A DNA stretch of 64,000 nt from an uncultured Chloroflexia bacterium (GCA_963770795.1 CAVYQR010000006.1:70264-134263); one strand, 5' to 3'; shown: positions 30,130 to 40,952, counted from the first letter of the stretch. A program made the numbers and translations. Notes: generated from the sequence alone by a model not told the origin.

Positions 30130-30277
30130 TGGGCACTCGCCAGCGGATCGAGCCGCAGAGGGGTGGGGGCTTCCTCCGTCGGGCGGCGAACGGTCCTCAT
30201 CGCCCGCCTCGCGGGCATCTGGCGCTGGAGCGGCGAGCAGGCCAGACGAAGGCAGCCGGCTCGGTGGCGAGTGCCCA
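30130..30277. repeat. Long palindromic element A (148 bp)
   Basis: 13-bp perfect terminal IR TGGGCACTCGCCA / TGGCGAGTGCCCA, nested GAGCCG/CGGCTC stem; followed by GGTCG. Confidence 0.65.
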
Positions 30278-30380
30278 GGTCGTGGGCGTCCGGCAGGCGG
30301 CGGCCCCATGGCGCGCGGGCGACATCGACGATCGGGCCGCCGCCCCCTTGAATGCGAGCGCTCAGATCCTGTATCGCTTG

Positions 30381-30402
30381 GTACGAACTGATAGCATCGT
30401 AC
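30381..30402 (+). promoter_or_regulatory. Palindromic operator upstream of the antitoxin gene
   Basis: GTACGA-N10-TCGTAC, 5 nt before the ATG; AT-richer than the surroundings. Confidence 0.55.
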
Positions 30403-30407
30403 ATATC

Positions 30408-30692
30408 ATGTCTAGTCGAGTAGGCGAGCGCGGTCAGATCACGATCGAGAAGGCGATCCGCGAGGAGCTGGCGATCTACGCGGGGGACGAGACCGTCCAG
30501 CGCGTGGAGGACGGCCGGATCGTTATCGAGATCGTCCCCGGACGGCACCGGCGATCGCTGGCCGGCTCCCTGCGCGACAAGGCCGGTCGCACGCCACCCG
30601 ACGAATCGTGGGAGGCGCTGCGGGCCGCGGCCTGGGCGACACCGGACCCGGCCTGGAACACACCCGCCGTTGAGCGCGAGGAGGACGGGTGA
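30408..30692 (+). CDS. vapB: AbrB/MazE/SpoVT-family antitoxin
   Basis: MSSRVGERGQITIEKAIREEL...GDE; overlaps the PIN gene (GTGA). Confidence 0.85.
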   Translation: MSSRVGERGQITIEKAIREELAIYAGDETVQRVEDGRIVIEIVPGRHRRSLAGSLRDKAGRTPPDESWEALRAAAWATPDPAWNTPAVEREEDG

Positions 30693-31096
30693 TTGCCGCC
30701 GATACGTCCGTGCTCGTCCGGTACCTGGTTGGGTCACCCGCTGCCGAAGCGCGGCGCGCCGCCCGCCTGATCGACGCCGACGACCGCGTGATCGGCGTGT
30801 CGCCGGTCGCCCTGGCGGAGTGTGCCCACGTGCTCCGGACGCAGTACGAGGTTCCCCAGCACGACATCATCGACAGCCTCATCGAGCTCGTCCAGCGCGA
30901 AAACGTCCGGGTGCTGGGCCTGCGGGCGGATGCGCTGGTGGAGATGCTCGTGCGAGCCCGCGGGATGCCCGGTCGGCCCATTCCGGACGCGATGATCGTC
31001 GCCGCGGCGATGGTCTCTGATGCGACCGCGCTCGCGACCTTCGATCGCGGACAGGCCCGCTACGGCTACCCGGTGGAGGTGCCCCCGGTGTCGTGA
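30689..31096 (+). CDS. vapC: PIN-domain toxin
   Basis: IAADTSVL, ALAEC, IPDAMI, LATFD acidic PIN motifs. Confidence 0.88.
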   Translation: MIAADTSVLVRYLVGSPAAEARRAARLIDADDRVIGVSPVALAECAHVLRTQYEVPQHDIIDSLIELVQRENVRVLGLRADALVEMLVRARGMPGRPIPDAMIVAAAMVSDATALATFDRGQARYGYPVEVPPVS

Positions 31097-31119
31097 CCGT
31101 CCCCGTCCGGCGCCTGCGG

Positions 31120-37823: not shown

Positions 37824-38456
37824 TCAGCCGGCGGGTGCGGTCCCGATCCGGGTGTCCACACGCGGGGGGTGGGCATCCTCCCAGGCCGCGATCTCCGCGT
37901 CCTTCGCCAGGACATAGCCGATCTCGTCGGTGCCGGCCATGAGCATCATCTTGGAGAACGGATCCACGTCGAAGTCCAGCGTGGTGCCGTCCGGGAGCAG
38001 GATCCCCTGCTCGGCGAGGTCCACGCGGAGCTCGGCATCCTCGTCTGCCGCGATCATCTCGAACAGGCGCGCGAGCGTCTCCGGGTCCACCACGATCGGC
38101 AGCACGCCGTTCTTGAGCGCGTTGCTCCTGAAGATGTCCGCGAACGACGTGGACAGGATCGCCTGGATGCCCCACGAGCGGAGCGCCCAGGGCGCGTGCT
38201 CGCGGGAGCTGCCGGTGCCGAAGTTGTCCCCAACAAGGAGGATCCTGCGACCGTCCATGCCGGGCCGGTCCAGGACGAAGGGCGGGTCCTTCTTCGTCCC
38301 GTCCTCGTTGAACCGCCGGTCGCGGAAGAGCGCCTCCGCGAGGCCCTCCTTGTCGGTGACCTTGAGGTAGCGCGCGGGGACGATCTGGTCCGTATCGACG
38401 TTCTCGGCCGCCATCGGCACGACCCGCGAGGTGAAGGAGCGGAAGCCCTCGGCCAT
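37824..38456 (-). CDS. leuD: 3-isopropylmalate dehydratase small subunit
   Basis: NVDTDQIVPARYLK, NFGTGSSREHAPWAL, SFADIFRSN. Confidence 0.95.
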   Translation of the reverse strand: MAEGFRSFTSRVVPMAAENVDTDQIVPARYLKVTDKEGLAEALFRDRRFNEDGTKKDPPFVLDRPGMDGRRILLVGDNFGTGSSREHAPWALRSWGIQAILSTSFADIFRSNALKNGVLPIVVDPETLARLFEMIAADEDAELRVDLAEQGILLPDGTTLDFDVDPFSKMMLMAGTDEIGYVLAKDAEIAAWEDAHPPRVDTRIGTAPAG

Positions 38457-38459
38457 CTC

Positions 38460-39902
38460 TTAGTACCCTCCGCCCACGGTGACGAGGTCCGCGACGCCGG
38501 GCAGCGTGCGCGGATCGGTGACGACGCCGGTGATCGCAGAGGCGGCCGCCGTGAGCGGGCTGGCGAGGAACGTGCGGCCGCCCTTGCCCTGGCGGCCCTC
38601 GAAGTTGCGGTTGGAGGTGCTCACCGCGTACTGGCCCGGGCTGAGCTGGTCACCGTTCATCGCGATGCACATCGAGCAGCCGGCCTCGCGCCACTCGGCG
38701 CCGGCGGCCTTGAAGATCACGTCCAGGCCCTCGCGCTCCGCCTGGACCTTCACCGGTTGGGACCCCGGGACGATCATCACGCGCGTCCCCTCGTGGACGC
38801 GGCGGTCCTTGAGCACGCTCGCGGCGAGACGGAGGTCGCTGATGCGGCTGTTCGTGCAGGAGCCGATGAACACGACGTCCACGGGCTGGCCGAGGATCGC
38901 CTGGCCCGCCTCCAGGCCCATGTACTCCAGGGCGCGCTCCAGGCCGCGCCGGGCGGCCGGGTCCGGCACATCCTCGGGTCGGGGAATGCGGCCGGTGATC
39001 GGGATGCCCATGCCGGGGTTGTTGCCGTAGGTGACCATCGGCTCCAGGGCCGACGCGTCGATCACGATGGACTTGTCGAAGACGGCTCCCTCGTCGGTCG
39101 GGAGGGTGCGCCATTTCGCGACGGCCTCGTCCCAGGCGGCACCCTGCGGGGCGTGCCGGCGGCCCTGGAGATACTCGAAGGTGGTCTCGTCGGGGGCGAT
39201 CAGGCCGGCGCGGGCGCCACCCTCGATGCTCATGTTGCAGACGGTCATCCGCTGCTCCATGTTCAGGGCGCGGATCGCCTCGCCGCGGAACTCGAACACG
39301 TGGCCGGTGCCGCCGCCGATGCCGATGCGGGCGATCAGGGCGAGGATGATGTCCTTCGCGCTCACCCCGGGGCCGAGGCGCCCGTCCACGCGGACCTCGT
39401 ACGTCAGGGGCTTGCGCTGGAGCAGGGTCTGCGTCGCGAGGACCATCTCCACCTCGCTGGTCCCGATGCCGAACGCCAGTGAGCCGAAGGCGCCGTGGGT
39501 GGCCGTGTGCGAGTCGCCGCAGACGATCGTCATGCCGGGCTGTGTGAGCCCCAGCTCGGGCCCGATGACGTGGACGATGCCCTGGGTGTCGCTGCCGAAG
39601 GCGTGGAGCGGAATGTCGAAGTCTGCGCAGTTCGTCTCGAGCTGCCTGATCTGTGCCGCGGCCTGCATGTCCACGATCGGGAGGCCGCGTGGCGTGGTGG
39701 GCGTGCCGTGGTCCGCCGTGGCGACGGTCTTGTCCGGGCGCCGCGCCTTGAGGCCGCGGTTCCGGAGCCCGGTGAATGCCTGGGGGCTGGTGACCTCGTG
39801 GACGAGGTGCAGGTCGATGGCGAGGATGGCGGGGGCGCCCGGGTCCTGGGAGACGACGTGCTCGTCCCAGATCTTCTCGACGAGGGTGCGCGGTGTGGTC
39901 AT
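38460..39902 (-). CDS. leuC: 3-isopropylmalate dehydratase large subunit
   Basis: [47 protein letters not shown]. Start ATG 39902. Confidence 0.96.
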
Positions 39903-39992
39903 CGGCTTCGGGTCTGCTCTGCTGCGGCTGCGGGGAGGAGAAGGGTACCAGCGGATCTCACCGACGGGTCGCCGCGCCACCCCGGGCAGCGT

Positions 39993-40721
39993 TCAGCGTT
40001 CTGCCCCGATACGCGAGCGTTTCCCGTCCAGCACGACCCAGAGCAGGGACGGACCGGGCCACGGGGCCGTGCCCGTGAGGGCGGCGAGGGCGTCGGCGGG
40101 GTGAGCGGGGTAGGCGACGCGCAGCTGGCGCTCGAAGGTGATCGCGACATCGCGCGTCGCGCGCGTGCGCCGCACGACCAGGAGGCGGCTGATCGCGGGC
40201 TCGTCGCCGAGATGGGGCCAACCGTCCCAGCTTGGCAGCGATGCGGCCTTCTCCGTGGACCACCGGACGAGCTGCTCGAGGCGGCGCAGCTCCGACTGGA
40301 GCTCAGAGGCGAGGAACACGTGCGAGGTGGCGTCGTGCAGACCCAGATCGATCCAGCCGCGGCTCGGCTGCCGGACCGCGAGCTCGGTGAAGGGCGTCCA
40401 GCGAGGATGGAGCGGCGCGAGGAGGACCTCCAGCATCCGTGCCTGGTGGCGGTCCCGGAGCGCAGGTCCGGTGTTGGGGTAGATCCGCGTGTGGAGGTCC
40501 GCCCCGAGCGCCGAGGCGAGTCGCTGGTACGTCGCGATCGATGGCGCTTCCGAGCCACCCTCGATGCGGGCGAGGAAGCGGAGATCGACCCCAGACGCAC
40601 GGGCGAGCTGCGCCCGCGACACGCCCGCGTCCTCGCGAAGCCGCAGCAGGTCGCCGGCCAGCGTGCGGTGGCGCTTCGCCGAGGCGGTGGCAATGGCCTT
40701 CTCGAACTTCATGGTGGTCAC
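39993..40721 (-). CDS. XRE-type HTH fused to a PD-(D/E)xK/Vsr-like nuclease-fold domain
   Basis: LLRLREDAGVSRAQLARASGVDLRFLARIEGG (HTH_XRE), then TE...RGWIDL...ASELQSE. Start 40721 (GTG) or 40712 (ATG). Confidence 0.65.
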   Translation of the reverse strand: MTTMKFEKAIATASAKRHRTLAGDLLRLREDAGVSRAQLARASGVDLRFLARIEGGSEAPSIATYQRLASALGADLHTRIYPNTGPALRDRHQARMLEVLLAPLHPRWTPFTELAVRQPSRGWIDLGLHDATSHVFLASELQSELRRLEQLVRWSTEKAASLPSWDGWPHLGDEPAISRLLVVRRTRATRDVAITFERQLRVAYPAHPADALAALTGTAPWPGPSLLWVVLDGKRSRIGAER

Positions 40722-40797
40722 AGGCAGAGTGAAGCGGCCGGCGCTTACCCGCGGCTTGTTGATGCGCGCGCTCGCTCGTCTTGCCCGGCCGCGGCGG

Positions 40798-40952
40798 TGG
40801 GACTGCCAGTCATCGCTACGTCGTGCCTTGGGTCGTCTCCTGTGACTGGTGGTCATGGGGGAGGCCCCGATCCGGCCGGAGATGGGCCTCTCCGATGCCT
40901 CGGAGTCACAGGACAGCGTTGCGATCCGCTGCGGCTATGACTGGCAGTCCCA
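40798..40952. repeat. Long palindromic element B (155 bp)
   Basis: 16-bp perfect IR TGGGACTGCCAGTCAT / ATGACTGGCAGTCCCA; nested TCCTGTGACT/AGTCACAGGA (40838-47 / 40904-13) and GAGGCCC/GGGCCTC; followed by GGTCG. Confidence 0.75.

Follow-up and report, generated by a model that had tools for sequence, protein, structure and literature searches.

A Mirror-Symmetric Four-Box Element Upstream of a Predicted HTH-Nuclease Gene in Chloroflexota, Most Likely an Operator Array and Possibly Mobile

Introduction

Controller operators of restriction-modification (R-M) systems of the PvuII, AhdI, BclI and Esp1396I type carry C-boxes with the core GACT-N3-AGTC, two in number and 4 nt apart, upstream of the regulator's own gene, where they are bound cooperatively by dimers of an XRE-type helix-turn-helix (HTH) protein. 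The half-sites of PvuII-type C-boxes have been given as GACT-N3-AGTC (PMC2175313). Here we describe a 155-bp element of related design, element B, in a stretch of 64,000 nucleotides from an uncultured Chloroflexia bacterium (GCA_963770795.1 CAVYQR010000006.1:70264-134263; the whole stretch is called the window below). Element B lies upstream of a gene for an XRE-HTH protein, P0001, whose C-terminal domain is PD-(D/E)xK-like and predicted to be a nuclease; genes of this family are referred to as HTH-nuclease genes. An initial annotation of the window had joined B and a second palindromic segment 10 kb away, element A, into one family of repeats. We find that A and B are not one family, and that the most probable role of B is that of an operator array, which may also be mobile.

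REP and REPIN sequences, the palindromic intergenic elements of REP/REPIN-RAYT systems, are composed of inverted halves and flank a single-copy, vertically inherited gene; they were reportedly connected with RAYT genes by Nunvar in 2010 and by Bertels and Rainey in 2011. Looping operators of the XRE/CI type, such as those of lambda and 434 CI and of RcoLS20 of pLS20, comprise several palindromic operators at whole helical turns, an arrangement implying that oligomers bind cooperatively and that the regulator governs its own gene. Miniature inverted-repeat transposable elements (MITEs) such as Correia and Nezha are about 150 bp long, end in terminal inverted repeats, occupy intergenic positions and are present or absent between relatives. 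A literature search found no published description of an element family equivalent to the one reported here. What is new is the C-box identity of the box core, a layout with boxes at 0, 42, 105 and 147 bp, orphan copies with corresponding empty sites, and a negative result for element A.

Results and Discussion

Anatomy of element B

Element B (40798..40952) was supported by palindrome detection, box search and a family profile, and lies 86 nt upstream of the start codon of the HTH-nuclease gene (39993..40712, − strand), between that start and the ilvB leader and gene on the + strand. It contains four 15-bp boxes, in which half-sites of the type (G/T)GGAC/ATGAC flank a free centre, with the core GACT-N3-AGTC. 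Outer box 1 (GGGACTGCCAGTCAT, 40799..40813) and inner box 2 (GTGACTGGTGGTCAT, 40842..40856, 43 bp from box 1) lie on the + strand, and inner box 3 (40895..40909, reading ATGCCTCGGAGTCAC on the + strand, 53 bp from box 2, with one mismatch) and outer box 4 (40937..40951, reading ATGACTGGCAGTCCC on the + strand, 42 bp from box 3) lie on the − strand. The outer boxes, GACTGCCAGTC, fit the GACT-N3-AGTC symmetry, and sites of the GACT-N4-GTCAT type stand at 40801 (+), 40844 (+), 40895 (−) and 40937 (−). The box centres are mirror-symmetric at 0, 43, 96 and 138 bp, leaving gaps of about 4, 5 and 4 helical turns; because this spacing is near whole helical turns, all four boxes would face roughly the same side of the helix.

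This arrangement shares with the R-M controller operators the box core, the placement of several boxes upstream of the regulator's own gene, an XRE-type HTH protein as the predicted binder and, as we infer for B, cooperative binding of dimers. It departs from them in number and spacing, the R-M C-boxes being two and 4 nt apart, whereas the B family has four boxes 42-63 bp apart in a dyad of 138-147 bp. The helical phasing recalls the CI-type operators; in contrast to those arrays, the B family is a mirror-symmetric four-box unit of 147 bp that is itself copied around genomes.

The long palindrome of the initial annotation was confirmed for B. Its terminal inverted repeats of 19 nt (95% complementary) enclose an inner palindrome of 42 nt, and the fold stands out at z about -5.5 on both strands and as DNA (RNA fold z -5.4 on the + strand and -5.85 on the − strand, DNA-parameter fold z -5.56), with none of 200 shuffles folding as well. 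The predicted + strand hairpin is very stable (-100.6 kcal/mol). Together with the location of B in the control region of divergent genes, close to the ilv leader peptide, this stability might suggest a structured RNA, either a hairpin in the 5′ untranslated region of the HTH gene or a small RNA of the ilv control region, and a noncoding RNA had been among the possibilities raised initially. We consider this explanation extremely improbable. The fold scores just as well for the opposite strand and with DNA parameters. Against Rfam, the window had no match at gathering thresholds, and B itself matched nothing at E values up to 1. The layout is found, moreover, beside HTH-nuclease paralogs outside ilv contexts and also downstream of genes.

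Comparison of orthologs bears on the same question. Copies of B at the same site were recovered from six loci (L001, L006, L167, L168, L169 and L170; handles of this form denote fetched loci), giving with the window an alignment of seven sequences; L169 gives the L168 sequence again on a second, shorter contig, which leaves about five independent B orthologs. The half-sites are invariant throughout this alignment, and the centres are variable. Positions in the box centres, which would be stem positions in an RNA, are mismatched between the arms of one element in three to four of the seven sequences, and the fold z ranges from -5.8 down to -0.9. In the alignment 78% of cells pair, against 31-39% in slid controls. 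The covariation of stems that the initial annotation had put forward for examination turned out to be marginal only, with 10 pairs changed on both sides against 7.2 ± 1.7, a score reached by 17 of 500 shuffles. Since the half-sites are invariant and the centres vary independently, the boxes are better explained as mirror-arranged protein-binding sites than as a selected stem.

A family of four-box elements at HTH-nuclease loci

The comparisons rest on the window, which is about 70% G+C and whose proteins have their closest homologs in metagenome-assembled genomes (MAGs) of Chloroflexota, and on separately fetched related loci, 694 kb in all. One set comprises 80 loci encoding P0001 relatives from species-representative genomes, nearly all of them Chloroflexota MAGs, with often several HTH-nuclease paralogs per genome. 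The other, the pyrD set, consists of 80 loci from metagenomes, each with a gene for a relative, 95% to 72% identical, of a dihydroorotate-dehydrogenase-like (pyrD-like) protein of the window.

The results showed that, 220-300 nt ahead of the ATG, many HTH-nuclease loci have inverted boxes that enclose a span of 150-175 bp. The commonest family box is (T/C)GGACTGCCAGTCC(A/G), and the canonical layout places boxes at 0, about 42, about 105 and about 147 bp; the layout of B (0/43/96/138) differs from it by a central gap one turn shorter. Across 83 HTH-nuclease loci there were 91 pairs of perfectly palindromic boxes with the same half-site, where 21.9 ± 3.6 were expected, and the favoured distances between paired boxes (42, 63, 105 and 147 bp) are all multiples of 10.5. 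B has the boxes, the phased dyad spacing, the full-length profile match and the adjoining HTH-nuclease gene that characterize this large and widespread Chloroflexota family. Under a profile from whose training B and its close orthologs had been excluded, B was the top match in the 64-kb window (E 9e-4, model positions 7-171). At some loci elements lie on both sides of the HTH-nuclease gene (L002:1260-1425 and 2292-2457; L003:275-440 and 1450-1584; L007:1232-1399 and 2255-2419).

As a separate observation, the same-half-site distances in L001-L085 (42, 63, 70, 77, 84, 105, 147 and 154) are all multiples of 7, and most are multiples of 10.5. The multiples-of-7 pattern may be a coincidence, or may be driven in part by loci with 77-nt tandem arrays.

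Box sequence and recognition helix vary together across the family. Proteins with the helix GVD[AP]A[YF]LGRIE are paired with the half-site TGGAC, those with VDTAYLYRIL with TCGAC, those with LPQSTVSDIL with ATCGG and those with VDPGFL[SC]RIE with TTGAC, and the window type, VDLR[FY]LARIE, is paired with GGGAC...GTCAT. Judged from these sequences, this tracking is the strongest indication at hand that the protein recognizes the boxes beside its own gene.

The reading that we favour, and regard as rather likely in its full form, is that B is an operator-type binding-site array for the adjacent HTH-nuclease protein. P0001 dimers would occupy the four boxes of B and assemble cooperatively into a higher-order complex, which would control the promoter of the P0001 gene itself and may present DNA to the conserved nuclease-like site. 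Elements of the four-box type travel with the gene family, the box sequence changing together with the recognition helix. Scans of both spacers, that of A and that of B, for promoter and terminator consensus sequences gave no match, and no public sequencing run contained more than 17% of the words in the B region.

The HTH-nuclease protein

The 239-amino-acid P0001 belongs to a family with more than 1,400 matches in a database clustered at 90% identity. At 50% identity and E up to 1e-30 the family numbers 185 clusters, and the majority of the clusters that could be traced to an organism come from Chloroflexota MAGs. Searches of P0001 in Pfam, NCBIfam and PADLOC gave matches to HTH families only, and a Pfam search with the C-terminal half gave none. 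The controller proteins C.BclI and C.AhdI rank with the best matches to the HTH domain, in sequence and in structure.

The assignment of the C-terminal domain draws on an alignment and a structural model. In an alignment of 54 sequences reaching down to 32% identity, D87, E110, G119, D122, E137, K155, P202 and G220 are invariant. An AlphaFold2 model built from 14 sequences was poor (predicted local distance difference test score, pLDDT, 61.6), and the model from the 54-sequence alignment (pLDDT 94.4) was used instead. It consists of an N-terminal HTH and a C-terminal alpha-beta-beta-beta-alpha-beta core, whose elements are helix 88-98, strands 105-113, 119-127 and 132-139, helix 145-157 and strand 173-181. 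D122 opens the second strand of the model, E137-L-Q139 lies in the third with Gln at the Lys position, and the invariant K155 is in the helix that follows. From this modelled topology and the invariant acidic and basic residues, the domain appears to be a PD-(D/E)xK-like nuclease.

The fused nuclease-like domain of 150 amino acids sets P0001 apart from the R-M controller proteins, and neither a methyltransferase gene nor a separate endonuclease gene lies near it, its neighbours being leuC and ilvB. The predicted, conserved nuclease-like active site likewise distinguishes P0001 from CI-type repressors. The initial annotation had described the gene as an accessory one in housekeeping surroundings, and HTH-nuclease paralogs indeed occur in unrelated, non-ilv contexts; in the nearest relatives of the window the gene is nonetheless syntenic between ilvB and leuC, with the order ilvB-leader-HTH gene-leuC kept. 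By eye, a tRNA-like sequence was seen just downstream of an HTH-nuclease gene at L084:1140-1215.

Orphan copies and the question of mobility

Family copies also exist away from HTH-nuclease genes. A profile trained on gene-linked elements alone matched orphan elements over their full length in L086, L087, L091 and L098 (E 1e-11 to 2e-8). These four full-length matches represent two sites, L086, L087 and L091 sharing one and L098 having the other, and come from about 330 kb of unselected related DNA, the scope of the count. No HTH-nuclease gene was found in any of the 80 pyrD-set loci. In the orphan of L086, L087 and L091, TGGACTGCCGGTC boxes stand at 0 and 147 bp, there are inner boxes as well, and the centre has a CGGATCGGGGCC motif that B also has. 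At L097:2183-2424, in a locus from which vapBC is absent, the spacer upstream of the pyrD-like gene has four boxes of the CTCGACTCCCAGTCAGA type that form a tandem array of 72 nt. Gene-less copies of the family thus exist, and they turn over between close relatives.

These orphans, at unrelated intergenic sites that are filled or empty between close relatives, speak for an alternative in which the four-box elements are primarily mobile. The PD-(D/E)xK domain would cut the DNA in or close to the boxes, the elements would spread by homing, by gene conversion or by a partnership like that of REPIN and RAYT, and any operator role would be secondary. The flanking of the gene by two elements in L002, L003 and L007, the several paralogs per genome in differing contexts, and the invariance of the putative catalytic residues E110, D122, E137 and K155 across 54 sequences agree with such mobility, as does the orphan at L098:3427-3690, which is flanked by a duplication of about 38 nt of the 3′ end of the upstream gene (27 or more matches, z 10.9). 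In the nearest relatives, however, gene and element are syntenic and diverge at the rate of their neighbours, the L098 duplication is the only significant flanking direct repeat or target-site duplication among 25 elements, and outside the boxes the identity of orphans to gene-linked elements (0.66-0.68) is barely above the null (at most 0.66). On the pyrD-gene tree, in addition, the orphans of L086/L087 and L091 are consistent with a single old insertion that was lost later in other lineages. We regard primary mobility as the less likely course, while noting that homing or gene conversion driven by a nuclease would leave no target duplications, so that it is a live alternative and not exclusive of an operator role.

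Comparison with known repeats gave a mixed picture. Like REPIN-RAYT systems, the four-box family has a gene flanked by elements and gene-less copies in other intergenic spacers. The RAYT protein, however, is an HUH/Y1 transposase (IS200/IS605-like), whereas P0001 combines an HTH with a PD-(D/E)xK-like domain and has no HUH/Y1 match; and REP units are short hairpins of single-stranded DNA, whereas the units of the B family are 15-bp palindromic boxes of duplex type at helical phasing. With MITEs the family shares the length, the terminal inverted repeats, the intergenic position and the presence or absence between relatives. The MITE-like character proposed in the initial annotation was nevertheless not upheld: target-site duplications were restricted to the one element in 25, there is neither a parent insertion sequence nor a transposase, and the terminal repeats of the B family are themselves internal palindromes that recur inside the element. 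From R-M C-boxes the family differs by having orphan copies elsewhere.

Several observations sit uneasily with the operator reading of B. The central inverted repeat AGGCCC...GGGCCT is conserved in the window lineage, and in that lineage the halves of B are complementary outside the boxes also, neither of which operator logic alone needs. The orphans keep the complete four-box layout away from HTH-nuclease genes, a behaviour more readily expected of a mobile or copied element than of a simple auto-operator. Foldseek searches of P0001 against the PDB and BFVD returned matches to the HTH domain only, this domain dominating the comparison, and the tracking of half-site by recognition helix is uncorrected for shared ancestry.

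A bolder version of the mobility argument would make the HTH-nuclease proteins and their 147-bp four-box palindromes a self-contained DNA-transaction system with a new class of enzyme, functionally analogous to RAYT/REPIN or to homing cassettes; we put it forward tentatively and think it unlikely. The HTH would dock on the phased C-box-like sites, the nuclease domain would cut or nick them, and intergenic spacers like the one described in the next section would gain or lose copies of the element, whether or not accompanied by the gene. Recombination between two elements flanking a gene could also leave solo orphans.

Binding, cooperativity, autoregulation and any cleavage are conditional in all of these readings, and the operator array and its rivals carry different implications. 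A protein that only represses would make the family a new cooperative operator-array architecture with its origin in the R-M controller type, and one that cuts as well would make it a new partnership of host and element comparable to REPIN/RAYT. B itself is a defined, testable element tied to an uncharacterised family of HTH-nuclease fusions, and the phased four-box C-box-like layout offers annotators a concrete recognition rule.

The pyrD/vapB spacer

Orthologous loci were anchored by the pyrD-like gene, which lies at 29006..30013 (− strand) in the window. A module of vapB (AbrB/MazE-type) and vapC (PIN) at 30408..31096 (+ strand) diverges from it, and the spacer between the pyrD-like gene and vapB (30028..30403, 376 nt in the window) proved hypervariable on locus comparison. 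It is about 300 nt long in L086, L087 and L091, where it holds a true orphan four-box element, and short and empty in other relatives (41-63 nt in L088, L089, L093 and L107, equally short in L092, and 76 nt in L106). Empty sites at orthologous loci, which the initial annotation had suggested looking for, were thus found in close relatives. In L095 the spacer is 783 nt long and contains an unrelated open reading frame (ORF) of 230 amino acids (L095:1678-2370), which by eye looks NHL/beta-propeller-like. In L094 and L096 a GNAT gene directly abuts the start of the pyrD-like gene and there is no vapBC.

The module is altogether missing from many other pyrD-set loci, so that vapBC and the spacer together make up a presence/absence polymorphism of 1.07 kb (window 30039-31109), and the accessory nature attributed to vapBC was borne out by its presence or absence among close relatives. 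In the tree of pyrD genes the window groups with L086/L087 and L091 (orphan), L088/L089 (empty), L095 (other insert) and L094/L096 (no vapBC). The spacer is an insertion/deletion hot spot with recurrent gain and loss. On these sequences, the orphans of L086/L087 and L091 fit one old insertion that was inherited and then repeatedly lost.

Element A is not a member of the B family

Element A (30130..30277) lies in this spacer and had been described as a nested hairpin. Its ends, TGGGCACTCGCCAG and GTGGCGAGTGCCCA (arms 30130-30143 and 30264-30277), do pair, though weakly, forming a terminal inverted repeat of 13 perfect bp followed by 6-7 bp past a bulge; the interior contains no nested hairpin, and the fold z is -1.8 on the + strand and -3.3 on the − strand. 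The window contains five perfect inverted repeats of 13 bp or more within 250 nt, where a Markov null gives 1.5 ± 1.3, which makes the repeat of A one of several and unremarkable alone.

The proposal that A and B form one REP/MITE-like or noncoding-RNA family, B being the enzyme-linked copy and A a non-autonomous one, had its basis in ends that read TGGG(C)ACT(C)GCCAG in both, in their similar size and in the GGTCG that follows each. In the window GGTCG does follow both elements, but it is absent from the six loci with B orthologs and so is not a conserved flank. The best local alignment of A and B scores 22, a value that 15-38% of random window segments equal, and the supposed relatedness of the ends could not be distinguished from chance. 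Neither palindromic GAC-N5-GTC boxes nor inner boxes were found in A, and its end TGGGCACTCGCCA is not internally palindromic. The B-family profile gave A negative bit scores even with the 394-nt spacer as the entire database. The only HTH-nuclease gene seen in the window is that of P0001, 10 kb off from A. Thus a repeat family tied to HTH-nuclease genes, as envisaged initially, does exist for B, with gene-less copies and filled and empty sites, and A is outside it.

Searches for A elsewhere were negative throughout. Local alignment against 165 loci found no homolog, the best scores falling within coding regions, and no A-like sequence was seen in the 80 pyrD-set loci, even beside a flanking protein of 95% identity. 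Across the 694 kb of related DNA the end motif of A was not enriched (29 matches with at most two mismatches; null 29-38), and it formed no further inverted pair. A 16-nt exact match to an A end in L084 was rejected as a coincidence, as it lies within an ORF and has no partner. A permissive Rfam scan of A returned only tpke11 (E 0.8), ORFs across the A spacer had no Pfam match, and none of the public sequencing runs contained the spacer.

Two considerations pull the other way. A occupies the very spacer in which L086, L087 and L091 carry a genuine family member, with a left flank of similar length (62-65 nt), and it is possible that A is a very decayed or replaced relative of the family. The window spacer, however, aligned with other loci nowhere beyond the vapB promoter and the ribosome-binding region of the pyrD-like gene, and its global alignment to the L086, L087 and L091 spacers showed no homology, while the L086 and L091 elements remain 80% identical to each other at a gene distance of about 0.16. 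A single family comprising A and B is on this evidence highly improbable.

One could still picture A as a decayed or overwritten remnant of an ancestral orphan, its ends kept complementary by conversion within the element or by an unknown binding factor. The grouping of the window with the orphan carriers L086/L087 and L091 in the pyrD tree makes ancestral presence plausible, and the similar size and left-flank length and a loose resemblance of the A ends to an outer box would agree with it. Simple vertical decay is nevertheless an unlikely origin of A, because the L086 and L091 elements are still 80% identical. In addition, no residual similarity is left anywhere in the window spacer, selection of its own would be needed to keep 13 bp of perfect repeat in an element that can otherwise no longer be recognised, and repeats of this grade arise about 1.5 times per window by chance. 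We therefore think such an origin improbable, and give equally little credence to A being a true relative of B. Judged from the sequences compared, A is lineage-specific, non-conserved filler DNA with a short terminal inverted repeat, and its likeness to the ends of B is coincidental. It serves as a warning that short GC-rich inverted repeats of this kind arise by chance in genomes of 70% G+C.

Other features of the ilv/HTH control region

Beside B lie two pairs of tandem direct repeats (40958..41059, + strand; 29 nt twice at 93% identity, and about 22 nt twice) that have no counterpart in the ortholog L001. They probably arose by recent local slippage within this control region. Where the window has its long ilv leader peptide, three of the orthologous loci (L001:2386-2604, L167:341-586 and L170:293-538) have a called gene of 72-81 amino acids between ilvB and the HTH gene, which suggests that a long ilv leader is conserved in this lineage.

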